A stretch of 24,391 nucleotides of DNA from Cyanobacteria bacterium P01_A01_bin.123 (GTDB lineage: Bacteria; Cyanobacteriota; Cyanobacteriia; Phormidesmidales; Phormidesmidaceae). The stretch lies in NCBI GenBank assembly GCA_039815185.1, contig JBCBZT010000082.1, positions 1-24,391 of the forward strand, written 5' to 3'. The stretch's first letter is position 1. Every line of letters begins with the position of its first letter. Below the pieces are notes generated by a model. It was not told the DNA's origin, searched no databases, and saw only the letters and a list, made by a program, of their open reading frames with translations. This document shows, piece after piece, positions 4,882 through 23,834 of the stretch. The position numbers and the translations under genes are program-made.

Positions 4882-5388
4882 TCAGGCTTGTGGTGGCAAT
4901 GCCGCAACTTCAGGAGCGCGAGCATTCAGGACATGTGAAAGATTTAAGAGAAAAATTGTTTTATTGCCTTCCTCATCGGGAACAACAGCCGTGTGGCTGA
5001 TCAGTTCTAGAAAATGGGATGACGCGCTGACGGATGGCGGCAGCGATCGCAGTAAATCTGGTGATAGCTCAACCAAATCTGGCAGACCATCTGTCCAAAT
5101 ACCGAAGGGTTCCCATTCAGGGCTACGGGCAATGATCAGGAAAGGTTGGGGTGTTGAGAGTGATAGCGAAGGGGTAGGGGTTAGCCATTGATGCAGATTG
5201 AGCACTCGAATCACATGGCTACCGATTTGGAGCAGCCCCAGGCGATTCAGTTCATCATCGCGATCGCTTGGCCCATGGCGCAAAACTCGCAGAACGTTCT
5301 TTGACGGTAGGGCCAAAGCATGATCCGCTACGGGAAAGGCGATAAACTTTTGCAGATCCGCATCTTGATCTAAATCTAATGATGTCAT
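4882..5388 (-). CDS. cheW: CheW-like coupling protein (last gene of the Pix/Tax operon)
   Basis: KFIAFPVADHALALPSKNVLRV...LGLLQIGSHVIRVLNL...FLIIAR...FGIWTD fits the CheW pattern; starts 11 nt after the cheA stop. Confidence 0.78.
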   Translation of the reverse strand: MTSLDLDQDADLQKFIAFPVADHALALPSKNVLRVLRHGPSDRDDELNRLGLLQIGSHVIRVLNLHQWLTPTPSLSLSTPQPFLIIARSPEWEPFGIWTDGLPDLVELSPDLLRSLPPSVSASSHFLELISHTAVVPDEEGNKTIFLLNLSHVLNARAPEVAALPPQA

Positions 5389-5399
5389 AGCTTAATCTC

Positions 5400-8300: not shown

Positions 8301-8831
8301 TGGCTCTGTTTCCAGTGCCGCTGCAAGCTGATCGAGCCGTTGAGCAACCCCCACTTCAAAGATCGATTGAGTGACATCAAAACCCAATTCTACTGAGGTA
8401 GGAATATGGGCATTCTGATCAAAATAATCTCCCAAATAATCTTGGAGTCGGGCAAAGATGGTCGCTGTCCGATCCAGGATTTCATCATCATTGACGGTCG
8501 CTTCAGTCAGCTCGGCCCTTAAGGCTAAACGGAGACATTCAAATCCCTCAAACAGTAAAGCTTCAACTTCTGCATCAATGGACACCGCTGGACGACAGAG
8601 TGCTCTAAACACATCCTCCAAGGAATGAGCAACTTTAGCGATCGTCTCTAGTTCGAGGCTGGCCGCAGCCCCTTTGAGCGTATGCGTAGCCCGCATCAAC
8701 GTATTGACTTTGTTGATACTGCTATCTTCCTGTAAGGTCAGTAACCCTGTCTCCAGAACCTGCAATAGTTCCGGAGCCTCCTGCAGGAAGTACTGATAGC
8801 CTTGCGCTCTAATAGTCGGGTCAGTCGTCAT
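5400..8831 (-). CDS. pixL: CheA-like hybrid histidine kinase (PixL/TaxAY type): Hpt, degenerate Hpt-like region, linker, dimerisation, HATPase, CheW, receiver
   Basis: Hpt RATHTLKGAA; N box HLVRNAFDHGIE; G1 DDGQG; F box LFEPGFST; G2 GRGVGLDVV; C-terminal receiver IVDDS...CDIEMP...SKP. The gene symbol rests on operon position. Confidence 0.93.
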   Translation of the reverse strand: MTTDPTIRAQGYQYFLQEAPELLQVLETGLLTLQEDSSINKVNTLMRATHTLKGAAASLELETIAKVAHSLEDVFRALCRPAVSIDAEVEALLFEGFECLRLALRAELTEATVNDDEILDRTATIFARLQDYLGDYFDQNAHIPTSVELGFDVTQSIFEVGVAQRLDQLAAALETEPPKEILTVLQTQAEVFLGLGESLNLPGFEAIAQVAIAALKQHPDQVIAIAQLALKDFQAGQTAVLAGDRDQGGQPSEALQALAHIQAHDQVADYSVENTAVVLGNTAAVIEESAVVEETAVIEESVLDQETEAVETTTIPVIHKLFQWMRGSVQPSSDQMNEAQGVASPKLSDIVVEPDQGSAQEVYETPDVSLEQPYDDNANTLLENIWGADAAPTNADSNLESDSNPAALAISPEAINPNVKSQSTAEPETLRLRDLSNSPNAQPSGQQPIPSPNKGLMAPAPTVRIQIEHLDQLNYAVGELLTNHNQQSLQAEQIKIAVRHLYKRLQQHQQVLSQLQDWVDHQQMPQTRPQMGDWQVTPLRQSVPPAFQSESWGASQYLQVSRPLPIGFDALELDQYSEPQLVIQSLLDDTVQLTEAADAIELFTRQSRQTQEQQGRLLLKTRDALIESRMFPLGQLFERFPGVLQQLETLHHKPVELTLHGTEVLVDKAIGERLYDPILHLVRNAFDHGIEPVAVRQQWAKPKAGQLEIAAHHQGKHLVIEVRDDGQGLDFERIRQQAVERQLVSPQQAHNLSQAQLTDLLFEPGFSTTSQISSLSGRGVGLDVVRSQLQALQGEVTVTSVAHQGTTFTLHIPLSLTIAKLLLCQANARAYALLPDAIEQILIPQPDQIQQRDHCKVLWWGEDEAACWIPIYALSDLLDYHGQAQRLPTQSASPLMPKTSVPHILLIRHQGVLLGIEVAQMLGEQELVIRPLNPLLETHAYLYGASILADGRLTLVLDGAALAESASNLSVSNLQADSKTRYDSTHLSTETLAASTHPPRLPITTDLEIGKQLGQKLLIVDDSVTTRQTLTLTLQKAGYQVIQAQDGQEAVDQLLQHPNVQLVICDIEMPRMNGFELLQHCQNDSALVKMPVMMLSSRSSEKHRFLAEQLGAIAYVSKPYLEHKLLSMVAEVLEAEVLNPISG
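7930..8016 (-). repeat. Degenerate ~18-bp (6-aa) tandem repeat in the CheA linker
   Basis: Protein ENTAVVLGNTAAVIEESAVVEETAVIEES; DNA units such as TTCTTCAATAACGGCTG / TTCTTCGACAACGGCTG / TTCCTCAATAACAGCTG. Confidence 0.6.
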
Positions 8832-8898
8832 GGCGAGGAAAGCGGGGTGGGTAAAGAACCTATCAATTCAAAGGACTGACACAGTTGGGTGCCTTTTG

Positions 8899-8966
8899 CC
8901 CCCTTAGCCCCGCAATTCTGGAGAGCATCAGCGTCAAAATTCTCCAGAATTAGGGAATTCAGGGGG
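8899..8966. repeat. Palindromic cyanobacterial short dispersed repeat (CCCCAGAATTGGGG-type), degenerate, between pixJ and pixL
   Basis: Perfect 11-bp inverted repeat AATTCTGGAGA (8914-8924) / TCTCCAGAATT (8941-8951), extended by CCCCCT... / ...AGGGGG arms. Confidence 0.65.
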
Positions 8967-8979
8967 ACGTAGCGGAGTC

Positions 8980-11900
8980 CTAATTCACTCTGAATTGTTG
9001 ACTGGTCGTCTGGAGATCTTGAGCGGTCGTGAGTAGGGTTTGGAAAGCAGTAGAGATATTAACGGAGTCTTCGGAGGTTTGATTGGCAATCTCAGCAACA
9101 TCCCGCATGGTCAGGGTTACAGACTGACATTGCTGTGTCTGCGTCTGCGTCGCCTGGGTAATGCCTGTAACCAATTGGCTAATTTGACTGGTGGCATCCA
9201 CAATGGCACTGAGGCTTTGACGGGCTTCGCTCACCACCGTAGTTCCTGAGGCAACCCGCTGAATCCCATCTTCCATCGCAGTGGCAACCGCCGATGTGTT
9301 GGCCTGAATTTCCTGCACTAACTCCTCGATATCTGTAGCTGCTTCAGCCGACTGGCGGGCTAGAGATCGCACTTCATCCGCAACGACTGCAAATCCCCGC
9401 CCGTATTCTCCGGCTCGGGTAGCCTCAATTGAGGCGTTCAGTGCCAGAAGTTGGGTTTGGGTCGTAAAGTTGCCAATCAAATTCACCACCTTGGAAATTT
9501 TTTGGGAGGATTCACCGAGACGTTTGAGCCGTTTGTTGGTTTCTGCCACCGTGCCTCGAATTTGCTGCATCTCATCCACGGTGCGGTCAATAGCGGCATC
9601 CCCGGTCAGTACGGTTTGGTTGGCCTGCTGAACAGCAGTTTCCACCTGCCGAGCATTGACCTCTACTGCTTGGGTGGTTTGGGCCATGACCTGGAGTTGT
9701 TCTAACGCAGTGGCTAGGGCTTTAAATTGTTCCTGAGCTTGGTCTGCTAACGTAGCAATGGCAGATTCACTGGTTTGGGTGGTTTGAGTGACTTGGCTAG
9801 AGGCCGCCTGCATTTGAACGATGATTTGCCGTAGGCTACCGAGAGTGTTGTTGTAGGCATCTGCTACAGTCCCCACTTCACTCTCAGTCACCGGAGCCCG
9901 GACCGTTAAATCCCCGTCTAAAGCAGGGCGCACTGCTGACAGCAATTGAATCACCTGCTGTTGAAGCCGTTCTTTGGCAGCCTTGTCTCGCTCGGCTGCT
10001 TCAGCCAGTTGCACCGATTGATGCTGTAGTTGCTTGACATACTCGCCCTGTTGAATCGCAATGTCGAGCTGTGCCGCAATGCGTTTGGCGAAGTCAATTT
10101 CATCCGCTTGCCACTCGCGGGGATGTTCACATTGATGGATACAGAACAGACCCCAGAGGTCTTCTCCTCTGAGCAGTGGCACCACCAGATTAGCCTGCAC
10201 CTGAAACTGTTCTAAAACATCGACGTAACACTGTTGAATGCCAGACCGGTTGATATCAGCAAAGGTAGAGACATGCCCCCGTCGATATTTATCTGCAAAT
10301 CCCTGGCTGAAGCAGTGATCTATAACTTCGACTTCAAGGGCAGAGACGTAGCCCGGACGCACATTTTCAGCAATTGTTTTGCCTTGGCTGTACTTGGAGC
10401 CCGGCACAAATTGAAAAACCGCTACCCGATCCGCCTTGAGAAAGTTGCGAATTTCCCGAGTCGTGGTGTTGAAGGCTTGCTGCAAATCTAGGGACTGGCG
10501 AATTCGCTCGACGATCTGGTTAATCAGCCGCTCTTGTTCAGCTACTTTGAGCTGTTGCTCAGACTGACGTTGTAATTCCTCAATGTATTCACCTTTTTGA
10601 ATGGCGGTGTTGAGCTGAGCGGCAATGCGTTTGACGAACTCGATATCACTATCTTGCCAATCGCGGGGTTTACGGCATTGGTGATTGTAGAACAAACCCC
10701 ACAGCTTATCGCCCTTCATTAGAGGCACAACAAGACTCGCTTTGGCCTGGAAATTAGAGAGAATCTCAACCAGGCAGTCTTCTAATCCAGAGTGCTGAAT
10801 ATCTGAAATACACCAGATTCGGCCCCGCTCATACTCCGAAACAAAGTTTTCTTGAAAGCAGTGATCTCGAATCGAAACATCAAGCGACGAGAGAAAGCCC
10901 GGTTCGACATCCTCGGCTACGGTTGTGCCATCGCGATAGTCGGATGCAACATCAAACTTATAAATTGCAGTGCGATCGGTCTGCAAAAAGCGGCGGATTT
11001 CTCGGCAGGTTGTGGTGAGGGATCGCTGTAAATCAGTCGATCGTTGAATCCGATCCACTATTTTGTCAATCAGGCGCTCCTGTTCGGCGGCTTTAGTCAT
11101 CTGGTTCGAGGTTTGTTCCAGATAGTCGACTTGTTGCATGGCCACACCGACCTGAGTCGCAATTTGAGTCAGTGCGTTGATTTCAACCGTTGCCCAGGAG
11201 CGGGGCTCGTCGTCCTGATAGGTTCCCAGGAGTCCCCATAGCTTGTTTTCCTTAAAGATCGGCGCAATTAGGAAGGCTTGAACAGCAAAATCTGCCAAAT
11301 CCTCAATTTGCTCGGCGGAAAAATCAGCTGTTTGAATGTTATTGACGACTAGGTGTTCTCGATTGCGATAAGGGCCCCCCTGAGTAGCTTGGAGATCGAT
11401 CTTGGGCCAGGTGGCCCCAACCCTAGCATCCTCTAGCGTATCCAGGCCCTTCTTTGTTTGCTCAGCGACCAATTGGCTGCTCCAATCTGGCTGAAACTGA
11501 TAAATCGCCACGCGATCGCTTTTCAAGAGCCGTCTGACGGACTGTTTTGTGGTCTGGAAGACAGCCTCAAGATTGGCAGACTGACGAATCTCAGGAATGA
11601 TTTCAGCGACTGCATGGCTGATGCGAGCCACTTGAGTTATCTGCGCAGATTGTTCCTGCAATTGCGCCAAATACTCGGTGCCCTGTAGCGTTGCCCCCAG
11701 CTGTCGCCCCACTTCTGCGAGCAGGGTGACTTCTCGACCTGACCAATGGCGAGGGCCACTATGTTGAAAGGCACTCAATAATCCCCAAAGCTTTTCGCCT
11801 TGTTTGATCGCTACGATAGCAAAGGATTTGATCCCAAAGTAGTCCAGGATATCAATATGACAATCACTTAAACCCGCATCATAGACGTCATCTGCAATGT

Positions 11901-13062
11901 AGGATTCGCCCGTGCGGAATCGACCGCCCTGGTTCTCCTGGATATAGGTATCTTCCCAGGCACTCCCTACTAATGTTGGCCAGCCTCCTGATTCGGACTC
12001 GTAAACGAAGTCGCCAAAATAGTCTGGACGAAATTTGTAGATCGCCACCCGTTCCACATCTAAGAGTTCTCGGACTTCTTGCACGGCAGTTTGGCAAGCA
12101 TTTTCAAGGTATGAAGCATCACTGATTTTCTGAATGATGGCAGGCAGTTCTTGCTCATACTGTGCTGCTTTGAGTTTCTCTTGGCGCAATTCTAGAGATT
12201 GCAAACCCAGCCGCAGCTCGGTCACAATTTTGTAGAGCAAGGCCAAGTCTGCATCTTGCCAAGGCTGAGGGACAGTACATTGCTGCACGACGATTAATCC
12301 CCAAACTTGATCCAGGAGAATCGGCACACTCAGACTTGACTGGGTTTGAAATTGGGCCCAGATCTGTTCCTGGTGAGGGCTTAAGGAAACCTGAGCGACA
12401 TCATTGATGGAAACAACTTGCTGTTGAGCTTCCTGAGGCGATTGGGCCCCAAATGCGATCGCTGGCAAAGTCTCATTCAAACTGGGCGTGTAGCCTTCTG
12501 CCAGCAACTCTGCAACCACGCTTCCCTGTGTCTCTGTCTGAAACTGATAGATCAGAACCCGATCAATATTGAGGTGCTGATGCACATCCGCCACCACCAC
12601 CGCCAGCAGAGTCTCGAGCGTATCTGCTTGATGCATGCGTTGCGAGGTACTGAGTAATCCCTGGAGATCAGCATGACCTGGTAGGGTTTCTGGGAATCCG
12701 TTGTCATCAAAAACTGACCAGTCATCATTGACGAGGTTGCCATTCAAGGACAAGTCATCGGCCGACTTAGGGGAGAGGTTGTACTCGGACTTCTGGAGTT
12801 TCTGCATGGTCATTTCCGGAGTTTCTGGGGTGAGGGTTTGGTCGAAAGCTGAAAGGCTAGTCTGATCGGTCTCCAGTAAAGGGTTCAAGGCTGAATGGGT
12901 AATTTGTTCCGGCTGGGACTGAACAGTTAACCCATTAGACGTCGAAGGCTGGGGTGGGTTTTGCAACTGACGATGATGAACCGGACGCTCCCGCGGTTGA
13001 CCCTTGACAACTCGCCTTATCCACTGGACGGTCGGAGAGGTATTCAACTTAAAAAACTTCAA
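8980..13062 (-). CDS. pixJ: Soluble methyl-accepting phototaxis receptor with five GAF domains (cyanobacteriochrome, PixJ-like)
   Basis: MCP signalling hairpin [34 protein letters not shown] and a HAMP-like [25 protein letters not shown]2 has [14 protein letters not shown]...DCH, GAF4 DHCF...DCL, GAF5 DHCF...QCY. GAF1 and GAF3 lack the Cys. Likely start is TTG 13062, with AGGAGG upstream and a TTGA overlap with the cheW stop; the track uses GTG 13098. No TM helix seen. Confidence 0.93.
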
Positions 13063-13616
13063 GGAACGTCCTCCTGTGATTGCCGCCACAGCGGACACTG
13101 AATAATGGATGGCGCATCTAAGACTGCACCCTGATCTCCTGGCAAAATGCCTGCAATGAAGGCGTGCATTTTGGGTGGAAATATTCCCGGTGCCACTATT
13201 TGTAGGCGACTCAAGTCATGGCGCTCAATGTCATCGAATCGCGGTACCCCAAGCCCAATAGATTTATCCTGAGCCTGAACCACCAAGACAAGCACAGGAG
13301 AGAAGTCTGACACCTGACTCAGGAGGGGGGAATAGCCCATGAGGGCATTACAATCAATCAACCAGAGCATCTCTCCACGCCAGTTGCAAACGCCTAGCGC
13401 CTCGTCTGGAACACCTGGAATCGGTAAGATGTCTGCCAAAGCGACCTGCAATACCTCTGCAATGTTTTCTAAAGGCAGTAACCCACTGTCTTTAGAACTC
13501 AATGGAAAGCGCAGCAGCCGCTGACGGGTATCGGGCGGGGGAGGTTCAAAGTTCAGGGATTCCAGGCTAAGGAAATCCAGTTGAGTGGTTGCGATCGCTG
13601 AGTCTGATGCAGTCAT
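13059..13616 (-). CDS. pixI: CheW coupling protein (PixI-like)
   Basis: [26 protein letters not shown] is the typical cyanobacterial CheW motif; lies between cheY and the MCP. Confidence 0.88.
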
Positions 13617-13709
13617 AGGACTTACGCTGGGGGAACTGATGCTTAGGACAATACGCTGAGGGAATAGTTTGAAAGGATGATGGGTAGCGAGTCGGGGTGT
13701 GGTATTTCA

Positions 13710-14075
13710 TCACATGGAAGTCAGACTTAAGACGGTCTTCATTAATTCCTTTTGATCCACGGGCTTTGGCAAATATGCATCTGCCCCCAGCATGGTTCCC
13801 CAGAGCTTGTCGGCTTCAGTCCCTTTGGTTGAGCAAATCACCACTGGAATATTCTCGGTACCTGTGCTGGTTTTGAGTTCGCGACATAATTCAAAGCCAC
13901 TTTGTCCCGGCAAAATCACATCCAGCAATACCAAATCTGGCATTTGAGACTGGAGCTTAAGCCGTGCTTCTTCACAGCTCATGGCACTAACAACAGCTAG
14001 ACCGGCTTGTCTCAGGTACTGAGTTAGTAGCTCAGCTTCGGTCAAGCTGTCTTCAACTAAAAGAACAGTGGTCAT
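13710..14075 (-). CDS. pixH: Single-domain CheY-like response regulator (PixH-like)
   Basis: VLLVEDS, LLDVILPGQSGFELCRELK, VVICSTK, GADAYLPKP. Confidence 0.92.
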   Translation of the reverse strand: MTTVLLVEDSLTEAELLTQYLRQAGLAVVSAMSCEEARLKLQSQMPDLVLLDVILPGQSGFELCRELKTSTGTENIPVVICSTKGTEADKLWGTMLGADAYLPKPVDQKELMKTVLSLTSM

Positions 14076-14103
14076 GGGGTATTCCTTTGCGATATCAATC
14101 GTT

Positions 14104-15411
14104 CTAAATTCTGTTTCTAGGCCAAGCTCGGATTTCCGGGTATAGGCGTTGACTCGGGGGCTGCAGCCTTAGGGGAGGGGGAAGCGGTGACGGCAGTGGC
14201 AGATGGTTTTGTAAAGTCGCTAAAACCTTCTCAGCCGTAATGGGTTTAGCTAAGAAGTCTGAGGAACCCATGAGTTTTGCCCGGACTCGATCAACGATGC
14301 CATCGCTACTGGTCACAATAATGACGGGCGTATGCTTGAAAGTAGAAATCTGACGGATTTGAGCACAAACTTCATAGCCATTTAAACCCGGCATAATTAA
14401 ATCTAAAAAGATCAGCTCTGGCTTTTGTTCTAGTAACATTGGCAAGGCTTGGATCGGATCGTCGATGCTGGTGTAGCGATACCCGGCTTGATTGAGGATT
14501 TTTCCCATTGCCATACTGTCAAATCGGCTGTCCTCAAGATAGGCAATCAGGGGGCCATCTGGTTGAGGCTGTGGCAGCTGGGCAGGAACGATTGTTGTTG
14601 GACGGGTGGGATAAGCAATATCTGAAACAGTATCTAACCCTATGATGCCTTGCTTGACATAGGGCATAATCGAATGGGTTAAGGGAATCAAGTGTTGCTT
14701 CAGTTTGATTGCCAGATCTCGGAAGGTACGATCGCCATTAATCAGCTGGGTAAGATTGTTATAAACCGATGGCGGGGTTTGTTGTCGTAAGGCTTCAGCA
14801 TCCTGAATCACAGGTGCAAGATTAGGAGAATATTGGCCTAAACCTGCTTGAATCCAGGCATTCCAAACTTGTACGACTTGCTGGATGAGGGGGTTAGGTT
14901 GAACTAAAACAGGGGGAGTAGTTGTAATACTCTGGCAAAAGTCGTGATAAGTGAGTTGTATACTCGAAGCGCGATCGCGGGATTGATGAGCTTGAATAAA
15001 ATCGAATAACATTTCATTCAGATTGCCTCTAACAACCCCAATCATCTGGCTTTTTAAAAGTTGTCCTTGCTCAACCCGCTTCATCAGGGATGAATAATCC
15101 CAAAGCTGGAATGAATCCATTAGCTGAGTGGAAAATTCTTGACTCACTTGTGGGCAGTATTGAGTAACTTGTCGGTACCAACGCCGAACAGGATTGCCCC
15201 CATTTATACCACCTACAAGGCATCCATCCTGAAAATAAAAATTCCAGATCTGCTTTTGCTTTTTCTTCCCTGGTATTGCTAAGGTCAAACAGCCTGAAAA
15301 ATGAGTCTGGCTGCAAGATAAAACTCTCTGCAACGTCTCTTCACTACTATTGACTACTTCATAGGTAATGGGTTCACTTTCAACAGTATTTAAGGATTCA
15401 GGAAGGAACAT
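14104..15411 (-). CDS. pixG: PatA-family response regulator (PATAN + receiver; PixG-like)
   Basis: N-terminal FSGCLTL...WNFYFQDGCLV...RRWYR (PATAN-like); C-terminal receiver AYLEDS...IFLDLIMP...IIVTS...FLAKP; first gene of the operon. Confidence 0.88.
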   Translation of the reverse strand: MFLPESLNTVESEPITYEVVNSSEETLQRVLSCSQTHFSGCLTLAIPGKKKQKQIWNFYFQDGCLVGGINGGNPVRRWYRQVTQYCPQVSQEFSTQLMDSFQLWDYSSLMKRVEQGQLLKSQMIGVVRGNLNEMLFDFIQAHQSRDRASSIQLTYHDFCQSITTTPPVLVQPNPLIQQVVQVWNAWIQAGLGQYSPNLAPVIQDAEALRQQTPPSVYNNLTQLINGDRTFRDLAIKLKQHLIPLTHSIMPYVKQGIIGLDTVSDIAYPTRPTTIVPAQLPQPQPDGPLIAYLEDSRFDSMAMGKILNQAGYRYTSIDDPIQALPMLLEQKPELIFLDLIMPGLNGYEVCAQIRQISTFKHTPVIIVTSSDGIVDRVRAKLMGSSDFLAKPITAEKVLATLQNHLPLPSPLPPPLRLQPPSQRLYPEIRAWPRNRI

Positions 15412-15504: not shown

Positions 15505-16232
15505 CTAATAGATTCTGACGGATTCTAATTTTAAAGCTGTTCAGATTGAATAATTAACAAGCAATTAGCAATCAAAAACCGTCAACCCAAAGGTGATAAA
15601 CGGCTAGTTTCTTGCCTCAAAGCAATTTTTTCTAGGAACTCTTAAATCTCAACCTTTATTGATAGTAGTTCAGTAAATGGGGAGGGTCAATTTCGATATA
15701 AAACTTTCATCGCCCTGAAATTTTCCTTAAAGAATGAGTGAAGTCGCAGTCGATTTTCCTGTTAAATTCAAGAAAAAGAGAATTAGTAACGCGATTTTTG
15801 GTGAGATCTGAGGTTTTTACATCAGACGCTTCGCCACCTTGTTTGCGATATTGAGATGCTTATATGCTGCTTAAATTTGTCCTAAAATTGCTTTTTCCCG
15901 GCATCATTTTTGGTTTTGTAGCAATAGCTATTCAATCTTTAAGACATCCAACAAATGTACTGAGATTTTCAGCACAATTACTTATTTTTCGTCGCATTAG
16001 GCTGACTTTGACACTCCCCCCGCCAAAAAGACAAGGGATTCTCAGAAGTTATGCGAGAAATTCTAGTGATGACAAATGGCTTAGGTGACTGCCAAAAATT
16101 GCGGTCACCTGAGGAGCAACCCTCGCTAAACATATGCCACACAAAACAGCCCCGGTATATCTGCCCACTGACTGACACCCCGCCAATGGTCTGAAAAAAA
16201 CGATGCAGCGTAACCCCACAGTGAACCACGCC

Positions 16233-17573
16233 TTAGTTTTCCTCGTCAGCGCATTCAGTCCCGTTTTTGCAACACTGTCCTTCTTGCTCAATCAAGTCAG
16301 CTGCATAAGCAACCCCACCTGCTTGCTTAAAAGATTCCTGAATCGCTGGAATGGCTTCAACAAAAGTCGGATCTGATATGACTTGTTTGATCGCAGAGCG
16401 CAGTTCATCGGGAGAAAAAGACAACTTATCGACAAACAGTCCGACGCCTGCATCCTTAACTCGCATTGCCATGTCAAATTGGTCAGCCAGCATTGGAATC
16501 CCTACAATTGGTGTTCCACTTGCCATTGACTCGTGCACACTATTAATGCCGCAGTGTGAAACAAATGCTCGAACATTGGGGTGCTGCAAAACTGCGAGTA
16601 AAGGCGGTCCCCAAGACTCTACGCGGATATTTGGGGCGATCGCAGCCGGTAGACACTTTTGCATCGCAGGTCGAAGTATCCACCAAAATCGGAAAGGGGC
16701 ATTCTCAAACGCTTTGTACATCCGATCAATTTGATTGGCAGACGCGATCGCAACGGTTCCCAGATTGACATAAACGACTGGCAAGCCCTCATCTGGCCAT
16801 ACTTTAACCCCAGTTGGTAACGGCTCAACCGTTGTCGGTAACATTGGCCCCACCATCTTGATGTTGGGCGGTAGTGGACGAGCGTACTCCAGACCAAAGG
16901 CACTATCAACGATCACGCGATGCTTGGCCCAAACTTGATTTATGGTCAATTTCTTCAAGCCGCGTTTAGCTCGAAATTGATTGAGTTTGCGCCCCACAGT
17001 CACCTCGATCAGCCAACCACTGAGCCATCGAAGTAAGGGATAACTCCATTGTCGATGCCAGGGCATCTGATGAATGGAATGTCCTAAATAGGGAAGCGGC
17101 ACATCGTACGCAGGCGGCAGATAAGCAATCGAGACTGTCACCAGCAAATCTGGATTGTTAATCACGACCGGAATCCCTTCCGCTTCGGCAACATCGACTC
17201 CGGCTCTTGTGACGAAATCAACAATCATCACATCCGGGCGCTCTTGTTGCACAACTTCCATGAGACTGTCAAAGTAACTGTCCCAAATTAACCACAGTGC
17301 ATTAACAATATCGAGACTGGTCTTTAAAAAAACTTTTTCGTTAGAGTTTAATTGCTCAATTCGGGAGAGTTCATCTTGAAATTGGGATAAGTGTCCTAAA
17401 CTGACAAAGCGAACGCCCTGGGCAATACAAGAATCTGCTTCTACAAAAGGTTTCATTTCTTCAGCAGAAGCAATTCTGACGCGCCATCCACGCCGAGCAA
17501 GCTCTTCTGCCTGCCGAAGCAGAGGCGTTAGATGCCCCACAAAAGGAATTGAGACAAAGAGTGCAGATTTCAT
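16233..17573 (-). CDS. GT1/UDPGT-family glycosyltransferase
   Basis: N-terminal catalytic His in PFVGHLTP; VVYVNLGT; PSPG-like box WGPPLLAVLQHPNVRAFVSHCGINSVHESMASGTPIVGIPMLADQ (16479-16613). Confidence 0.92.
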   Translation of the reverse strand: MKSALFVSIPFVGHLTPLLRQAEELARRGWRVRIASAEEMKPFVEADSCIAQGVRFVSLGHLSQFQDELSRIEQLNSNEKVFLKTSLDIVNALWLIWDSYFDSLMEVVQQERPDVMIVDFVTRAGVDVAEAEGIPVVINNPDLLVTVSIAYLPPAYDVPLPYLGHSIHQMPWHRQWSYPLLRWLSGWLIEVTVGRKLNQFRAKRGLKKLTINQVWAKHRVIVDSAFGLEYARPLPPNIKMVGPMLPTTVEPLPTGVKVWPDEGLPVVYVNLGTVAIASANQIDRMYKAFENAPFRFWWILRPAMQKCLPAAIAPNIRVESWGPPLLAVLQHPNVRAFVSHCGINSVHESMASGTPIVGIPMLADQFDMAMRVKDAGVGLFVDKLSFSPDELRSAIKQVISDPTFVEAIPAIQESFKQAGGVAYAADLIEQEGQCCKNGTECADEEN

Positions 17574-17587
17574 AGTGTGGAATTAGG

Positions 17588-18463
17588 CTATCTGACAGCA
17601 TAGACCATGAAAATGTCCATTACCCTGAATATTGCCCAATCCTCTTGAGCAACTTTGGTTCGATATCCATGGCGTTCAAGCATCGAAACAATTTGCTCAA
17701 CGCGATCATTGACGTTATGGACTTCGACAACAACTTGTCTAATTTTTCGCCAATCTTCCTGCTCAATTCCCGTCAGCACATCTAACTCACTGCCTTCGAC
17801 ATCGACTTTCAAGAGATCAATGCTACTAATATGATTCTCTCTCATCACTTCTGAAACTGTTTTCAACTCACAATTGACCTGCTTCGAGGCGCGTGTCTCA
17901 AATATGAAAAATTTGTTGAGATAAAGAGAAAGGGCTCCAAAGAGCAGCGATCGGAGGCCTGAAATTGAAAGGATCTTGACTAGAATCTGAGCCAGCTTGG
18001 CATTGAGCTCTGAAATGCGTTGCAAGTCAAGAACGATTGCCTTCATCCAGTCGTAGGGGCTGGCTTTTTGAGGTACGCTCGTCGCTGCTTCTGAAAAATA
18101 CATACTTGCAGTCATACTCAGTGCAGGGCTGTAGCTGAACTGTGTAATTTTGGCTGTGTTTGAGAGACCAACATTGCACAATATCGTGTCTGAAAAATAG
18201 CGTTCTGCATTGCTTTTCAGGACGTTAAAGGTCTCAGGGATGGGTTCAAATGCGAAGATTTTGAGATTTCGGAATGACTGAGTGAGCGAGAGCGAGAACA
18301 GACCAATATTCGCGCCAACATCAAAAATGCAATCCCCATCGCAAACTTGCACGCCGTGCTTGAGATAAGGCTGCATCTGAAACATCTCGTGATAGAGAAT
18401 TTTAGTATCTATCTGACTTAAGGCATTGATGCTTAATCCGTTCGGTAAACAAATATGCTTCAT
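17588..18463 (-). CDS. FkbM-family SAM-dependent methyltransferase
   Basis: IFDVGANIGLF, FAFEPIP and IDLLKVDVEGSE motifs; AGGAG RBS upstream of ATG 18463. Confidence 0.9.
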   Translation of the reverse strand: MKHICLPNGLSINALSQIDTKILYHEMFQMQPYLKHGVQVCDGDCIFDVGANIGLFSLSLTQSFRNLKIFAFEPIPETFNVLKSNAERYFSDTILCNVGLSNTAKITQFSYSPALSMTASMYFSEAATSVPQKASPYDWMKAIVLDLQRISELNAKLAQILVKILSISGLRSLLFGALSLYLNKFFIFETRASKQVNCELKTVSEVMRENHISSIDLLKVDVEGSELDVLTGIEQEDWRKIRQVVVEVHNVNDRVEQIVSMLERHGYRTKVAQEDWAIFRVMDIFMVYAVR

Positions 18464-18504
18464 AATTCTCCTTGCTCAATGATTTGCTAATCATGATTTT
18501 TTTT

Positions 18505-18528
18505 CCCAGAATTGGGGGGCTAGGGGGG
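18505..18528. repeat. Half-copy of the same cyanobacterial short dispersed repeat
   Basis: CCCAGAATTGGGGGGCTAGGGGGG resembles the right arm of the 8899-8966 element (CCAGAATTAGGGAATTCAGGGGG). Confidence 0.55.
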
Positions 18529-18554
18529 CCTGGATAGCTTTGAATTCGCTGATT

Positions 18555-20807
18555 TTAGTAATGCCTTGCCAATACATACCAACCAAACGCGCGCAGCTTG
18601 ACCTTCACATCCGAGTCTGGAACCAAAGGATCAAGATGCTTCCAAGCAGACTCTACCAATGCTTCAGCTTGCTGTTGACAATCTGCGATCGCGCCACACA
18701 TTTCGAGTCTATCGATCACGCTGGCAATTACTGTTGGATCAGTGGGTTTTGAACGAATCGTCAGCCATAGGTCTCGGCGCGCATCAACCTGCAATCTGGC
18801 CATTGCTTTTGCGACTGGCAGCGTAATTTTTCCACAGGCAATATCTTCTCCTTTCAATTTTAGATTGCCTTTAAAGCCACGTAAGTTCAACACATCATCC
18901 ACGATCTGAAACGCTAAGCCAAGCGACTCAAAGAACTGCCCAAGGGCTTGAGTTTGCTCTGGTGTTCCTTTTCCAATTAGACTACCAAGCTGGGCTAAAG
19001 AACTGGCTGGAACAGCCGACTTGAGTCGATGCACTGCCAAAACTCGTTTCTCTAATAGCTTGCCTTCACCTTGCTCAACGACTTCCGGCATCAGTGCATG
19101 GAAGCCATCAATATCGATTGCTTGTCCTGCATGAGCTGCGCGCAATGTCTCGAAGTAAATCTCATAAATCTTCAGCTTCTCTACATTGCTCAGGGATGAA
19201 TTGAGTAGTAAGATTTGCCCCAAAAAGTAGCAAGCATTCCCTGCATTAATTGCGATCGCTTCCCCATAGAGATGGTGACAGCAAGGCTTGCCTCGCCGAA
19301 TCTCTGAACGATCTTGAACATCATCCACGATTAGCGACCCCGTATGAAGCAATTCGGGCCAGACCAACCAATTTGCAAACGGTTGTGAATTACCGCCAAC
19401 GAGATCGATACAAGCTAAGACGGCATAAGACCGCCATGCTTTGCCACCTCGATCAATAACGTCTCGAATTGGTTTTAACAATGCACGACTGTACTGTGAT
19501 TGATCTAACCCCTCTAAGGAAAAACTTCTCTCTTTATTCGCCACAAGTTGATAGAGTTCCTCAGACGTTGGCGAAATCGGCAGCAAAGCCTGAATCGATT
19601 TCTGAGTTTCTTGGGCGACTGCCTGGAAGAAATGACTGAGTTTTTGGACCGGGTTAAACCCACTCCGCTCTACAAATCCTAAGCCACTCACCCCGTTTTG
19701 CCTAAATGTTCCCTCGCCTCGAATGCGACCTTCCCAGAATGCTGGTTTTGAAAGAATCGTGACGAATTCTTGTGCTGGAAATTCTGCTTTAATGATTAGA
19801 CTAATCTCTGCTTCTGGAATCTCTAACCGCCACTCAACCGGATAAGTATGAAAAGTTCGAGTGCTCGTCCAGTTTGTCAGCGGTTGAAACAGGAAATCTT
19901 GATAGTGACAAGCTTTTCCTTGCGGATCGATCACAATCGCCCAGCGCCCGCAGTTTTTAGCCAAATCAGCACTATCAAACAAATCGTAAACACTGACCTG
20001 ATAGCCATTGCTCAGTTGAATCGAAAGCCAATTCCAAGCAATATCATGCTTGATATGCCCTGCTGGCTGTTCTGCGGTGGGTTTGCCAAACTCATGATCA
20101 TACCAACCACTTCCTTCGACCGAGAAAGAATCATCCTCTAACGTCAGTGAGCCTTCAACTCGGCACTTCGGGATGAAATAGTAAAACATATTTTCATGAG
20201 CAGTTCCTCTAACGACACCTTGATCGCCATGGCGAACCACAGCGGTTTCAGGTTTAAAGTACAGTTCGCAACTAATTTGCTGTTCTGAATGTATCAGAGC
20301 CAGCTTGTAGGTACCGTCTTCAAGCCTGACAAATTGATTGCTATCTAAATCAAGGTCAAGCGAAGTTAAACTGACTTTTGGCTCTTTTCTCAATAATCGA
20401 TCGGGTAATGGAACATTACCTTTCTCAAATACCTCTCGTAGCGCTTTTTGAAGTAAGGGATCACTGCCTTCTCCCCCTTCCTTAATCATTTGCAATCCGA
20501 TCTGAGGAGCAGATTGATCTACTAATGAATCAAGCTGGTACTTTTGCTGCTCAACATCACAAATTGCCCAAGTCAGAGAATAGGCATACTGAAATGATTC
20601 GAGTTGCTGGTCTCGCCCAATCGCTAACCAAAAGAATGAAGCAAAGAGCGAGAATTCTCGACCATCGGCTGCTTTCAGATGGCTGTTGACGTACCACCAC
20701 TCTATTGTTGAAGACGCATGAGGCAGATCGTGAACTGCTAGATCGATCGCGCCTGCTTTGGGCCAATCTGCTGGAAGCTGACAAATAGACTCGAGTAACT
20801 GTACCAT
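18555..20807 (-). CDS. Fusion protein: N-terminal AttH/CrtC-like double-lipocalin domain plus C-terminal trans-isoprenyl diphosphate synthase
   Basis: N-half: EWWY (20691-20702), GWYDHEFG (DHE 20091-20099), WNWLSIQL, YPVEWRL, FWEG...GLGFVERSG. C-half: GGKAWR, FARM LHTGSLIVDDVQDRSEIRRG (DDVQD 19311-19325), GQAIDI, SARM FQIVDDVLN (18885-18899), GEDIACGK. GAGGT RBS before ATG 20807. Confidence 0.9.
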   Translation of the reverse strand: MVQLLESICQLPADWPKAGAIDLAVHDLPHASSTIEWWYVNSHLKAADGREFSLFASFFWLAIGRDQQLESFQYAYSLTWAICDVEQQKYQLDSLVDQSAPQIGLQMIKEGGEGSDPLLQKALREVFEKGNVPLPDRLLRKEPKVSLTSLDLDLDSNQFVRLEDGTYKLALIHSEQQISCELYFKPETAVVRHGDQGVVRGTAHENMFYYFIPKCRVEGSLTLEDDSFSVEGSGWYDHEFGKPTAEQPAGHIKHDIAWNWLSIQLSNGYQVSVYDLFDSADLAKNCGRWAIVIDPQGKACHYQDFLFQPLTNWTSTRTFHTYPVEWRLEIPEAEISLIIKAEFPAQEFVTILSKPAFWEGRIRGEGTFRQNGVSGLGFVERSGFNPVQKLSHFFQAVAQETQKSIQALLPISPTSEELYQLVANKERSFSLEGLDQSQYSRALLKPIRDVIDRGGKAWRSYAVLACIDLVGGNSQPFANWLVWPELLHTGSLIVDDVQDRSEIRRGKPCCHHLYGEAIAINAGNACYFLGQILLLNSSLSNVEKLKIYEIYFETLRAAHAGQAIDIDGFHALMPEVVEQGEGKLLEKRVLAVHRLKSAVPASSLAQLGSLIGKGTPEQTQALGQFFESLGLAFQIVDDVLNLRGFKGNLKLKGEDIACGKITLPVAKAMARLQVDARRDLWLTIRSKPTDPTVIASVIDRLEMCGAIADCQQQAEALVESAWKHLDPLVPDSDVKVKLRAFGWYVLARHY

Positions 20808-21181
20808 GATGACCTCAATGAAATAGCTTTAGGAGGTTCTTCTACAGGCGCTGCTTTAATTGCCCGAAATTGCAAACCTGCCGCTGAACCACGTTGAAAA
20901 ATTGTGAGTGAAACAACCGATAGTGCAAGGATCGTGCCAAACGTCAGTTCTCCTAAGGAGGCTGCTGCACTCAATGCGAAGTTGTCTACGTCTTCAATGC
21001 CGAGCAGGCAAGGGGCAATATCAGCATAGACCTCACCGTTGGAAAACCTTTGCGCATATCCCAAGCTTTCAGGCGGTAGCGGCACAATAAGGTTTTGGCT
21101 ACTTAGCTCAAAGGTACCGCCTGTGTCGGTCAGGCTGTCTCCAAATAAAACCAGGCGATCAAAATCAAGGGAAGCGTTCAT
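20738..21181 (-). pseudogene. Truncated SGNH/GDSL hydrolase (blocks I-II only), continuing into unrelated sequence
   Basis: AAGGAG RBS then ATG 21181. LVLFGDSLTDTG (block I), RFSNG, NFALSAA (block II-like). No block III G-x-N-D or block V D-x-x-H. The ORF overlaps the next gene by 70 nt. Confidence 0.72.
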
Positions 21182-21399
21182 TTTGTTACTCCTTACTATG
21201 TATGAAATGAGATAAACAAGGTTCAATCGACGCAGCTCAGAGCAACTGTTTGGTCGAGTATCTCTATTTCAGAGAGTAAGCGAGAGCAATCCGAGAAGAC
21301 ATGAGGCGAAAGCCCTATGTATCCTGGGACTTGAGCCATTATTTGAACATAAGACTTTAGCCCTGGGAGCTTTAGGTCTCAATAGTGCTTCAATCCCAT

Positions 21400-22296
21400 C
21401 TAGATTGAAGCGCTATCGCGAAACGATGCTACGAGATAATCCACAAAGGCACGAGCTGAAGGCTTTGCACTTTTTCCTCCAGCGAGCAATGCGTTAACTT
21501 CGACAGTCCCAATTTCCCAATCGGTAAGAAGTTGAACAAGTTCACCACTTTCGAGTTGTGCTCTACACCCCCAGAATGAAGTGGAAATAATTCCCATTCC
21601 GGCCACAGCAGCAACTGTTGACGCCTCATTGACGGTTAACATAAGCTGACCATCAACTCTGACGGACAACGTTTTGCCGTCTTTTTTAAAATTCCAGCCA
21701 GTTGACCCCATACTTGACGGTCCAATAATCACCTGATGCCCTGCAAGGTCTGCTGGAGTTTTTGGGATTCCAGCCTTCGCCAAATAGGCGGGAGAAGCTG
21801 CTAGTAGTCGTGTTGTTACCCCTAGCCGCCGCGCAACCATGGTTGAATCGCGGAGCGGACCAAAACGAACGGCAACATCAATACCCTCATCGATCAAGTC
21901 TTGATACGAATCAGTCACCACAAGATCAACATTCAAATCCGGGTGTTGAGCTAGGAAATCGGGAAGGCGAGGAATGATTTCGCGTACCGCGAAGCTGATG
22001 GCAACCCCCACTCTCAAGCGCCCCTGCAACTTTCCATCACTACGAACTAGATGGTTGGCCTCTTCCAACGCAGCCAGAATCGGGTCTATTCTCGCCAGAT
22101 AGTCCGCCCCGGCCTCAGTTAATTTCACTGCATGGGTACTTCTGACAAAGAGCGCCGCCCCCAGATCCTTTTCCAGCTTGGAGATGATTCTGGAGACAGA
22201 GGGCTGTGACAAGTCAATCTCTTGGCCCGCAGCCGTAAAGCTACCGGTTATGGCGACACGGCAAAACAAGCGTAAGGTCGAGATCCGATCACTCAT
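21400..22296 (-). CDS. LysR-family transcriptional regulator (CrgA/DmlR-like)
   Basis: HTH GSFTAAGQEIDLSQPSVSRIISKLEKDLGAALFVRSTHAVKLTEAG; effector domain DLIDEGIDVAVRFG, AASPAYL. Confidence 0.93.
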   Translation of the reverse strand: MSDRISTLRLFCRVAITGSFTAAGQEIDLSQPSVSRIISKLEKDLGAALFVRSTHAVKLTEAGADYLARIDPILAALEEANHLVRSDGKLQGRLRVGVAISFAVREIIPRLPDFLAQHPDLNVDLVVTDSYQDLIDEGIDVAVRFGPLRDSTMVARRLGVTTRLLAASPAYLAKAGIPKTPADLAGHQVIIGPSSMGSTGWNFKKDGKTLSVRVDGQLMLTVNEASTVAAVAGMGIISTSFWGCRAQLESGELVQLLTDWEIGTVEVNALLAGGKSAKPSARAFVDYLVASFRDSASI

Positions 22297-22354
22297 TCGT
22301 TTTACAAATAACTATTAGACATATATTACCTCTACCAATCAATAAACGAATGAG
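22292..22354. promoter_or_regulatory. Candidate LysR binding region in the divergent promoter
   Basis: T-N11-A box ATTCGTTTTACAAAT (22295-22309) overlaps the lysR start codon. Perfect 11-bp inverted repeat CTCATTCGTTT (22292-22302) / AAACGAATGAG (22344-22354). Confidence 0.55.
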
Positions 22355-22478
22355 CAATACTTAATCCATAAGCAGATGGCGCGGTTCACTTTCATCGAAG
22401 AACAGTGTTAAAGTCTGCGACTCTCACTCGAAAAACTAGCAAATTAAACAGCGTATAAACAGAATTGGAGGAATTAAG

Positions 22479-23024
22479 ATGAGCAGCAATTTTACTGTCA
22501 AGGTGTTTTTTAGAGGTGATTGGTGTCCGTGGTGTTCGGGCTACTTGAAAGACTTTAACGATAAAGCTCTTCATAAAATTCAAGAGCTTGGTGGAAAAGT
22601 TGTCGGAATTACTTCTCAAGCGGGAAACCAGTCCCAAAAAAACCTTGGCCTCAACTTTGATATTCAAATTGATGAGGAAAACATTGAAGCTAAAAAATAC
22701 GAGATTTTCATTACGCCTAAAGCTGAAACTCCGCTCAAAGATGTAGACGGAGCTTACCCAAACGGAATGGTTCAACCCGGAGTTGTTATTGAAGACTCTG
22801 AAGGAAAGATACTTTACAAGTGGGCAATCGTTCCTAGTGAGATGAATCTGGGTGGGGCTAGTGACAGACCATTAGTTGCAGATATTGTTGCTTCACTTGA
22901 GCAAATCCTTAAGGGCCAAGGAAACGGTGATTCATTTAACACAACTGACATGAATTACCTTGAGCAAAACCATCCTGAAGAATACCAGAAGGTTCAGGCC
23001 TACATTGCCTCTTTGAATCAATAG
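22479..23024 (+). CDS. Thioredoxin-fold peroxiredoxin-like (AhpC/TSA/redoxin) protein with CxxC
   Basis: VFFRGDWCPWC, VVGITSQ, MVQPGVVI (cis-Pro region); GGAGGA RBS. Confidence 0.8.
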   Translation: MSSNFTVKVFFRGDWCPWCSGYLKDFNDKALHKIQELGGKVVGITSQAGNQSQKNLGLNFDIQIDEENIEAKKYEIFITPKAETPLKDVDGAYPNGMVQPGVVIEDSEGKILYKWAIVPSEMNLGGASDRPLVADIVASLEQILKGQGNGDSFNTTDMNYLEQNHPEEYQKVQAYIASLNQ

Positions 23025-23168
23025 GATGCAAGCATAAGCAGAGGATAGAAGGGGAAAGGTTACCTAAGTCTGTAGAGTGGTTTACGAAAGCCTGAAAGCA
23101 TTGCCAGTCTTTGATTAGAGCTGGTGTACCCCCCTGCCACTACAAACCCACAAAACAGGAATAAGATT

Positions 23169-23834
23169 ATGTCTCTCCAAGAAAAACTCGACGCTTTTAA
23201 GGCAGACTTTGAAGCCAATAAGGCCCCTGCTGCAGCGGTGGAAGCCTTTCATCGTTCCACCCGTGAATTGATCGAAAATGGAAATGCCGAGCGCGCCCTC
23301 AAAGCCGGTGAACGAGCGCCCGAATTTACGTTGCCGGATTCAGACGGCAACCTCGTCTCTTCGAGAGCCTTGCTCACCAAAGGTCCCCTTGTACTAACTT
23401 TCTATCGTGGTGTCTGGTGCCCCTACTGCAATTTTGATCTACAAGCACTGGAAGAAATTGCTGACGACATCCGTTCCCGAGGTGCTTCACTTCTGGCAAT
23501 CTCCCAGCAAGGAGCTTCAAGCAGTCGCAAGTCCCAAAGGGATAACAATCTGAGTTATCCGATCCTCACAGACCAAGGTGGAGACTTGGCAGAGCGTTTT
23601 GGCCTGCGCTGGACATTGCAGCCCTATGTAATTGAATTCTTTAAGATGTTCCAGGTGGATCTTTCCAAGATCCATAACGATGACAAATGGACCTTGCCTA
23701 TGCCTGCAAGGTATGTCATCGACACTGATGGCACCATTGCCTACGCAGAGGTCAATCCGGATTATACTCGCCGCCCTGAGCCTAGCGATCTATTCCCGGT
23801 TCTCGAGCAACTTGGTCTTTCAGCAGTGAAATAG
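23169..23834 (+). CDS. Peroxiredoxin-like family protein (AhpC/TSA) with CxxC
   Basis: LKAGERAPEFTLPD, LTFYRGVWCPYC, WTLPMPARYVID, YTRRPEP. Start placed at ATG 23169 (MSLQEKL) after AGGA, rather than the track's GTG 23124. Confidence 0.9.
   Translation: MSLQEKLDAFKADFEANKAPAAAVEAFHRSTRELIENGNAERALKAGERAPEFTLPDSDGNLVSSRALLTKGPLVLTFYRGVWCPYCNFDLQALEEIADDIRSRGASLLAISQQGASSSRKSQRDNNLSYPILTDQGGDLAERFGLRWTLQPYVIEFFKMFQVDLSKIHNDDKWTLPMPARYVIDTDGTIAYAEVNPDYTRRPEPSDLFPVLEQLGLSAVK

Follow-up and report, generated by a model that had tools for sequence, protein, structure and literature searches.

CrtC of Rubrivivax gelatinosus is a hydratase in which H239, W241, Y266 and D268 are essential (PMC4717167), and its cavity, located between two barrels, is lined by D268, W110, W283 and W285 (PMC12402844). 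The enzyme accepts many head groups and hydrates C20 terpenes at the terminal double bond, with values of 4% for geranylgeraniol and 25% for geranyllinalool (PMC12402844). Here, we describe a gene that joins a barrel domain of this type to a trans-prenyltransferase domain. The gene occupies positions 18555..20807 on the minus strand of a 24,391-nucleotide contig (JBCBZT010000082.1) of Cyanobacteria bacterium P01_A01_bin.123; this whole stretch is referred to below as the window. The explanation that we tentatively favor, and that we place somewhat short of even, is that the fusion protein is a cytoplasmic two-domain enzyme starting a specialized terpenoid-lipid pathway: a geranylgeranyl diphosphate (GGPP) synthase would deliver a chain whose end would be hydrated by the barrel, and the operon would glycosylate and methylate the product.

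The open reading frame (ORF) and its two-domain architecture are confirmed. As stated in a first-pass annotation made from the sequence alone, the gene is a single ORF of 750 residues, and the plus-strand frame across the same interval is crowded with stops and hence closed. The three Pfam families which that annotation had proposed for checking were all found above their cut-offs: CrtC (PF07143, residues 35-241, E = 3.5e-21), Lipocalin_9 (PF17186, residues 257-383, E = 4.3e-23) and polyprenyl_synt (PF00348, residues 442-699, E = 1.6e-46). The first two form the duplicated lipocalin-like barrel that is the hallmark of the AttH/CrtC superfamily. None of the NCBIfam synthase models attained its cut-off on the fusion protein. 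An AlphaFold2 model based on an 87-row alignment (pLDDT 90.5, pTM 0.89) predicts that an all-beta two-barrel, into which two helices are inserted, is connected by a link of a few residues to an all-alpha synthase. The top Foldseek ranks for this model were NE1406, a putative AttH protein of Nitrosomonas europaea, and the kievitone hydratase of Nectria haematococca, and VIA-align gave Z scores of 36.5 for the Pyrococcus GGPP synthase 1WY0, 34.9 for NE1406 (2ICH) and 32.0 for kievitone hydratase (7A0Q). The structural check thus agreed with the initial domain reading, and the architecture is as unusual as had been supposed, the partner of the synthase being a beta two-barrel and not a helical cyclase. 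The domain junction was bridged by one contig each in three of the four sequencing runs examined (two studies), covering window positions 18710-19922 in run X2, 18505-20056 in X3 and 15794-20195 in X5. Because these contigs span the junction, and one of them the stretch from 15794 to 20195, neither the fusion nor the operon order is an assembly artifact, and a chimeric assembly was rejected on the basis of these contigs and of three-domain homologs found elsewhere. Separately, near the 3' end of the gene (18617), one X3 contig is short of one base, owing either to an error in the contig or to an allele with a frameshift.

The trans-prenyltransferase domain, delimited by Pfam, fold and motif conservation, comprises residues 389-750 (18558..19643, minus strand). 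It contains the FARM (its first motif rich in aspartate), DDVQD, at residue 495 (19311-19325, minus strand), followed by RRG at residue 504, and the second (SARM), DDVLN, at residue 637 (18885-18899, minus strand). The motifs of trans-isoprenyl diphosphate synthases (FARM, RRG, KS/T, SARM and K..ED) are all intact on the all-alpha fold. Moreover, FARM, RRG, K596, SARM and K650-E654-D655 show no variation across all 119 close homologs, a set made up of the 120 best-listed homologs minus one that was shorter than 680 residues. It is therefore well supported by motifs and predicted fold that this domain is an intact all-trans prenyl diphosphate synthase. With regard to chain length, the residues at positions -5 and -4 before the FARM are small (G490 and S491), which permits products of C20 or longer (bioRxiv 2022.04.04.487054), as the first-pass annotation had argued. 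When residues 480-575 were compared with the PDB, the best matches were the synthase domain of the fungal PvCPS and human GGPP synthase, both C20 synthases, whose YF and HxGQ elements align with Y527-F528 and H559. The features of Type III GGPP synthases are thus present (small -5/-4 residues, the YF and HxGQ floor, and D637-D638-N641 in the second motif). The Type III likeness proposed earlier holds for this chain-length region; as a whole, the domain has its best profile and structure match in the archaeal 1WY0 (E = 4.9e-35), with yeast 2DH4 ranked sixth (E = 2.5e-29). If the match to the yeast enzyme is taken with equal length on both sides, a pairing made by length, Y527-F528 and H559 would fall on yeast Y107, F108 and H139. 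We take these yeast residues to form the floor that limits the product to C20, and the corresponding residues of the fusion presumably do the same. Overall, the product of the synthase is probably C20.

The N-terminal two-barrel AttH/CrtC domain spans residues 11-385 (19653..20777, minus strand), an assignment based on the two Pfam matches and the two barrel structures above. All motifs listed in the first-pass annotation were located in the translation, including, in the barrel, EWWY at residue 36, WYDHE at 235, WNWLSIQL (WxWxSxQL) at 258, YPVEW (YPxxW) at 322, WEG at 358 and GLGFVE (GxGFxE) at 375. The reported lack of a signal peptide was also borne out: no signal-type hydrophobic stretch is present, the best 11-residue hydropathy being 1.2 versus 3.1 in a stand-alone AttH protein with a hydrophobic N-terminus encoded elsewhere in the same genome, and this value exceeds 2.0 in just one of 120 homologs of the fusion. 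A PDB search with a barrel profile of 69 rows gave just two significant matches, NE1406 (E = 8e-34) and kievitone hydratase (E = 1e-13), and the alignment to the latter pairs WYDHEFG with WYDRQWG and WNW with WTW. The translated primers published for R. gelatinosus CrtC read W-S-G-H-A-Y-L-D-S-N-E, in which D is D268 (PMC4717167), and the segment G-H-A-Y-L-D268-S-N-E aligns without gaps with G232-S-G-W-Y-D237-H-E of the fusion; the underlying pattern G..[WY].D...G occurred in 0.6% of shuffles. It should be noted that the CrtC register derives from these primers and the kievitone hydratase alignment, with no full CrtC sequence in the alignment. On this basis, the CrtC signature G-x-x-[YW]-x-D-x-x-x-G followed by W-x-W is matched by D237, W258 and W260. 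D237, within WYDHE (residues 235-239; 20091..20105, minus strand), would be the catalytic acid and counterpart of CrtC D268, and W258-x-W260 (20028..20036, minus strand) the putative cation-stabilizing pair corresponding to CrtC W283/W285, for which this role is described in PMC12402844. The two-helix insert of the model lies at residues 100-128 (20424..20510, minus strand) and is missing from the stand-alone AttH of the window genome. A role as a fusion-specific adaptor was ruled out, as the insert is also found in three secreted stand-alone AttH proteins of Armatimonadota (L012, L013 and L014), which have no synthase domain and, in L013 and L014, signal-type N-termini.

D237, W258, W260 and Y209 are invariant in all 119 close homologs. 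Within a diverse set of 85 members (those of 92 representatives with both domains covered; the counts ignore kinship), D237 is retained in 59. W37 is present in 53 of these 59 versus 8 of the 26 without D237, Y209 in 55 versus 2, and W260 in 57 versus 10. Indeed, W37, Y39, Y209, W235, W258, W260 and E359 disappear together with D237, whereas W38, Y322, Q346, E347 and the synthase motifs persist where it is lost, and on the tree the loss at this site required 13 or more changes. Because D237 and its aromatic partners decay together while E347, W38 and Y322 stay, they appear to constitute one functional site; E36 of EWWY looks more structural, since it is kept in 19 of the 26 members lacking D237. 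Of the two motifs that the first-pass annotation proposed for mutagenesis, WYDHE is the better target by its D237, which, and not the glutamate of EWWY, is the likely catalytic acid. Our reading is that the acid-aromatic active site would be intact in the window protein and dispensable in some lineages, and that the barrel is probably an acid catalyst.

The members without the site could also be explained by a barrel that is not catalytic at all. It would serve as a module for lipid binding or docking, which would accept GGPP and relieve product inhibition or hand it over to partners, and the protein would be a plain GGPP synthase, with a possible housekeeping role in some eukaryotes. This would fit the 26 diverse members that keep the fold residues and the synthase without D237 and most of its aromatic partners, the lipid-binding role proposed for NE1406 (PMC2954199) and the PX lipid-binding domain found on some forms. 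However, we consider it rather improbable, because the site is invariant in the window protein and all its close homologs, its decay elsewhere suggests a specific role where it is kept, and another plain GGPP synthase is not needed in this genome. Elsewhere, the genome encodes CrtE and a solanesyl diphosphate synthase of cyanobacterial type, both above NCBIfam cut-offs, which also identifies the host as a cyanobacterium; the fusion was therefore rejected as the housekeeping GGPP synthase of this genome and is regarded as an accessory enzyme.

On the basis of the matches to kievitone hydratase (E = 1e-13, Z = 32.0) and Pfam CrtC, the barrel is grouped with hydratases, from which a three-step scheme may be proposed. 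First, starting from an allylic primer and isopentenyl diphosphate (IPP), the C-terminal domain would form a prenyl diphosphate of all-trans configuration, in all likelihood GGPP, a step well supported by sequence and fold. Second, the terminal isopropylidene of the chain, either as the diphosphate or after dephosphorylation, would enter the cleft between the two barrels, where D237 would protonate the chain end, W37, Y209, W235, W258 and W260 would hold the cation, and the addition of water would yield a tertiary alcohol, 15-hydroxy-geranylgeranyl. Third, judging from the gene context, a glycosyltransferase would add a sugar and an FkbM-type enzyme would O-methylate a hydroxyl or the sugar, much as the carotenoid hydroxyl made by CrtC is modified. 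Other lineages would add P450 oxidation, sulfation and export.

The genes for the third step lie directly downstream on the same strand. The fusion is followed after 91 nt by a gene for an FkbM-family S-adenosylmethionine-dependent methyltransferase of 291 residues (17588..18463, minus strand; PF05050, E = 3.9e-21; TIGR01444 above cut-off), and this after 14 nt by a gene for a UDP-glycosyltransferase of glycosyltransferase family 1 (GT1; MGT/YjiC-like, 446 residues; 16233..17573, minus strand; PF00201, E = 1.1e-33; best PDB matches YjiC and OleI). A terminator-like hairpin with a 10-pair stem, identified by consensus match only, is located directly 3' of the glycosyltransferase stop (16207..16232, minus strand); the region contains eight such terminator-like sites, which is close to the shuffle mean of 6.2. 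A promoter scan remained at chance level (8 versus 9.3). The fusion gene heads a small operon whose product is probably a sugar-bearing terpenoid lipid. The first-pass annotation had been silent on these two co-transcribed genes and on the breadth of the family. The 18505-18547 stretch, a short G-rich spacer between the fusion and FkbM genes, was matched by many unrelated contigs in the manner of a dispersed repeat, and no second copy was found in the same genome at E = 1e-4. A role of the FkbM gene as an IPP methyltransferase for homo-terpenoids was considered and dropped, as the known enzymes of that kind are described as resembling geranyl diphosphate methyltransferases and the review of them never mentions FkbM. 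The gene order fusion-FkbM-glycosyltransferase recurs in three other loci (L001, L008 and L053), whose glycosyltransferases are 66-80% identical to that of the window. In L053, FkbM and GT1 are 73% and 80% identical to their window counterparts and the fusion only ~51%, a discrepancy which indicates that the parts have been reshuffled. The GC content at third codon positions is 0.41 in the fusion versus 0.46-0.52 in three flanking genes, which is a mild hint of foreign origin.

We further surveyed the neighborhoods of 91 fusion loci, many of them short and some close kin, using profiles built from the neighbors themselves. Soluble glycosyltransferases of three kinds adjoin the fusion in 19 loci, FkbM genes in 11 and lipase-maturation-factor homologs in 7, and in the window's own clade a glycosyltransferase is present at 9 of 11 loci. 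None of 12 stand-alone AttH loci had these neighbors, although this control is weak, with flanks of 1.5 kb or less in 9 of the 12. Occasional neighbors would supply IPP, namely IspH, 3-hydroxy-3-methylglutaryl-CoA synthase and reductase, and a Nudix protein, which we take to be an IPP isomerase. In Bacteroidota, a ~765-residue lipase-maturation-factor homolog lies directly 3' of the fusion (L005:7360-9651, L030:9258-11558, L144 and L145), and these operons also contain FkbM, a monogalactosyldiacylglycerol-type glycosyltransferase and often two P450 genes. A ~200-residue neighbor with a weak DUF2378 match in four of nine members was treated as background. Neither a cyclase, an aromatic prenyltransferase nor a phosphatase was recurrent in the 151 of 232 further neighbors scanned, and no crtB/crtI cluster occurred near the 91 loci, in which just two PF01593 genes were found.

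Tocopherol cyclase is a cyclizing relative of the barrel fold, and the barrel might likewise be a protonation-initiated, class II-like cyclase in which D237 starts the folding of the polyene into rings; the resulting copalyl-type or water-quenched cyclic diphosphate would be tailored by P450s, flavin adenine dinucleotide (FAD) oxidases and glycosyltransferases. P450 and FAD oxidase genes each adjoin the fusion in 5 of the 91 loci, and a separate terpene cyclase was not seen among the 151 neighbors scanned. (A sterol-reductase-like identity of the FAD neighbor was discarded; searches back the FAD_binding_4 family alone.) In addition, CrtC chemistry has been proposed to begin like that of squalene-hopene cyclase (PMC4717167), and the inter-barrel cleft hosts decalin formation in Fsa2, Phm7 and CghA (PMC8154222). 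On the other hand, both characterized acid-catalyzing relatives reached by our searches are hydratases, and Pfam and structure comparison of the fusion protein revealed neither a DxDD motif nor an alpha-barrel cyclase fold. CrtC itself is fully terminal-regioselective on more than 20 terpenes, with no cyclization reported in the accessible part of the source (PMC12402844). Hence, the bifunctional terpene synthase of the first-pass annotation survives in the sense of a probable acid catalyst fused to a synthase and has no direct support in the sense of a cyclase, the nearest relative of known reaction being a hydratase. It appears quite unlikely to us that the family represents a novel type of terpene synthase in a single protein, with a beta two-barrel that has no relation to the helical cyclases of classes I and II and initiates cyclization, by protonation, of the GGPP from its own fused synthase.

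A different possibility is that the two domains do not act consecutively. Another enzyme would transfer the prenyl group to an acceptor (lipid, sugar, aromatic or pigment), and the barrel would then hydrate or ring-close the prenylated product, in line with the use by kievitone hydratase and CrtC of prenyl groups on finished, non-phosphorylated molecules. A frequent neighbor that would fit such a scheme is a ~600-residue membrane protein that adjoins the fusion in 21 of the 91 loci, mostly of high GC (for example, L066:6467-8263), carries an invariant DD motif after its first helix and co-occurs with the soluble glycosyltransferases in no locus. Profile searches of this protein against Pfam and the PDB gave no match; one of its Atlas clusters has PMT_2 on 11% of members, and it looks GT-C-like by appearance only, which makes it a lead. 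We regard this scheme as unlikely, as transfer enzymes, be they prenyltransferases (UbiA-type or aromatic), phytoene synthases or others, do not recur near the fusion, and none is present in the window operon.

Several observations weigh against terminal hydration by the barrel or against the C20 assignment. By a hand-made register, CrtC H239, two residues before W241, appears to fall on M207; kievitone hydratase also seems to lack a counterpart of H239. NE1406 retains the aspartate too (WLDREW), so that D237 is no proof of hydration, and the same fold houses Diels-Alderases (PMC8154222). D237 is absent from 26 of the 85 diverse members, replaced by E in 21, with the synthase still intact, and the joint decay of the site residues was not significant on eight phylogenetically independent pairs. 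Small -5/-4 residues occur in long-chain enzymes as well and do not fix the chain length (bioRxiv 2022.04.04.487054). As for the context, 72 of the 91 loci, many on short contigs, have no glycosyltransferase of the above kinds, and it is missing in 43 of the 58 loci with at least 3 kb downstream; nor was a phosphatase a recurrent neighbor in the scanned set. A glycosyltransferase would not need a hydratase, as the C1 hydroxyl left by dephosphorylation would serve equally well; for this reason, the context favors a tailored terpenoid alcohol more than it does hydration as such.

The strongest link in the gene context is provided by longer fusion proteins of 1360-1510 residues, in which the barrel and synthase are preceded by sulfotransferase domains, GT1 domains or both. 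All six longer homologs listed have an N-terminal extension, with a GT1 Pfam match in five and a sulfotransferase match in five. On a plasmid of Tolypothrix PCC 7601 (L112:12646-17175), a 1509-residue sulfotransferase-glycosyltransferase-barrel-synthase is flanked by an exporter membrane-fusion gene of the ATP-binding cassette (ABC) type and by devC and ATPase genes (devBCA-type), and the adenylyl-sulfate kinase gene cysC lies ~11 kb away. This locus is a candidate for a compact pathway whose product would be a sulfated terpenoid glycoside destined for export.

The fusion is a widespread and patchy family, to judge from its homologs, across many bacterial phyla and some eukaryotes, and is rare in cyanobacteria. 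Among 8000 candidates, 1283 homologous proteins were found at E <= 0.001, and the best 120 of them, 51-67% identical to the window protein, all carry the three Pfam domains, so that the family extends well beyond this contig. Named carriers include Cyanosarcina, Calothrix, Merismopedia, Spirosoma, Fibrella, Flavobacterium, Polyangiales, Chloroflexota, Streptomyces and Glycomyces. Of 200 other genomes from the phylum to which a Myxococcales locus belongs, 22 contained both domains, as did 3 of 150 other genomes in the family of Spirosoma. The fusion was not found in 40 relatives, eight of which have a stand-alone AttH only, and was found in none of 400 sampled genomes of the window's phylum among the matches shown, with two candidates scored per genome. 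Three of the 20 representatives looked up bear the names of eukaryotes, namely Trypanosoma rangeli, Willaertia magna and a Clonostachys cluster (P0172, P0195 and P0406). The T. rangeli copy (749 residues, annotated as 'putative polyprenyl synthase') keeps D237 and the synthase motifs. Three other members have an N-terminal PX domain (P0125, P0192 and P0239), with damaged synthase motifs in P0192 and P0239. In a 55-row tree, the window protein falls inside a clade of 22 rows (support 99) in which cyanobacteria are mixed with Bacteroidota, a pattern that fits gene transfer. Taken by itself, the barrel has fusions or fusion fragments as its nearest relatives. None of 51 pattern matches for the fusion in viral contigs was confirmed, and the open-access literature, to which the search was confined (subscription journals lay outside it), yielded no paper on the fusion.

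Some other features of the window should be mentioned. The sequencing runs containing this DNA are mostly labeled as marine metagenome, and no RNA dataset is among those listed. Upstream of the fusion lies a truncated GDSL-lipase remnant (20738..21226, minus strand), which covers only positions 1-57 of 208 of PF00657 and is probably not part of the pathway. At 20921, within this remnant, run X5 contains ~1.3 kb of extra sequence, and a loose end of X2 lies at 20925, so that a deletion in the window strain is probable at this site. Further upstream, positions 21400-23834 contain a LysR regulator and two peroxiredoxin-like genes, with a depth several-fold higher in X2; the cover of X5 ends past ~21500 and loose ends occur at 21376-21404, which suggests that this block is separately mobile or variable. 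Finally, a complete and ordinary-looking cyanobacterial taxis cluster occupies 4882-15411 (minus strand), with response regulators, CheW, a multi-GAF chemoreceptor and a CheA hybrid.

Myxobacteria, cyanobacteria, trypanosomes and fungi all conserve this rigid fusion of two known folds, and its function would inform a large family and probably also the AttH group at large, whose members mostly have no assigned function. If the barrel hydrates, this would be the first synthase-hydratase chimera and would point to glycolipids and sulfolipids of terpenoid type that are new to science; biocatalysis, too, has an interest in hydrating terpenes at the terminal position without a cofactor. If the barrel cyclizes, a new fold would be added to terpene cyclization, seeding undescribed glycosylated, methylated or sulfated diterpenoid lipids in scattered bacteria, trypanosomes, amoebae and fungi. 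In protists, the eukaryotic copies, which carry only the annotation 'polyprenyl synthase', suggest that a branch of isoprenoid metabolism has been overlooked.

Compared with known systems, the fusion shares with CrtC of R. gelatinosus and Thiocapsa roseopersicina the Pfam match and the aspartate segment and W-x-W in register, and CrtC is itself able to hydrate C20 terpenes. However, CrtC is a stand-alone, membrane-associated enzyme acting on C40 carotenes in pigment clusters, whereas the barrel here is fused to a synthase, seemingly lacks the H239 counterpart and has no recurrent carotenoid genes nearby. Kievitone hydratase (7A0Q/7A0T) is the closest structure of known reaction, and its WYD, WxW, YP, QE and EG motifs align with the fusion barrel; in contrast to the fusion, it is a secreted fungal detoxifier of prenylated isoflavonoids with ~17% identity and no synthase domain. 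NE1406 is the best structure and profile match, but it is a stand-alone protein described as having no known function (PMC2954199). The stand-alone AttH genes that we have seen encode signal-type N-termini and often lie 3' of an ABC permease, and the window fusion has neither; exporters do flank some of its relatives. The Diels-Alderases Fsa2, Phm7 and CghA belong to the same fold class with an active site at the barrel interface (PMC8154222), but act on polyketide-peptide hybrids and were absent from the sequence matches and the top 50 structure matches. On the synthase side, Type III GGPP synthases (human, and yeast Bts1, 2DH4) share a DDxxD without insertion, small -5/-4 residues, YF and HxGQ, and DDxxN, and the archaeal 1WY0 the closest overall fold; these GGPP synthases differ in showing ~25% identity to the fusion domain, on which no NCBIfam cut-off is reached, and in having no fused barrel. 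The fungal prenyltransferase-cyclases (PvCPS, fusicoccadiene synthase and variediene synthase) likewise combine an N-terminal modifying domain with a C-terminal GGPP synthase-like domain, and the synthase domain of PvCPS is the top match of the chain-length region, but their partner is an alpha-helical class I/II cyclase on a long linker, unlike the beta two-barrel and few-residue link found here. The fusion is thus outside the carotenoid CrtC family, being fused and without pigment context, and, by the fold of the partner, outside the fungal chimeras. By analogy, it may be likened to a GGPP synthase onto which a CrtC or a kievitone hydratase has been welded, a comparison that holds to the extent of the hydratase reading, to which we give slightly less than an even chance.

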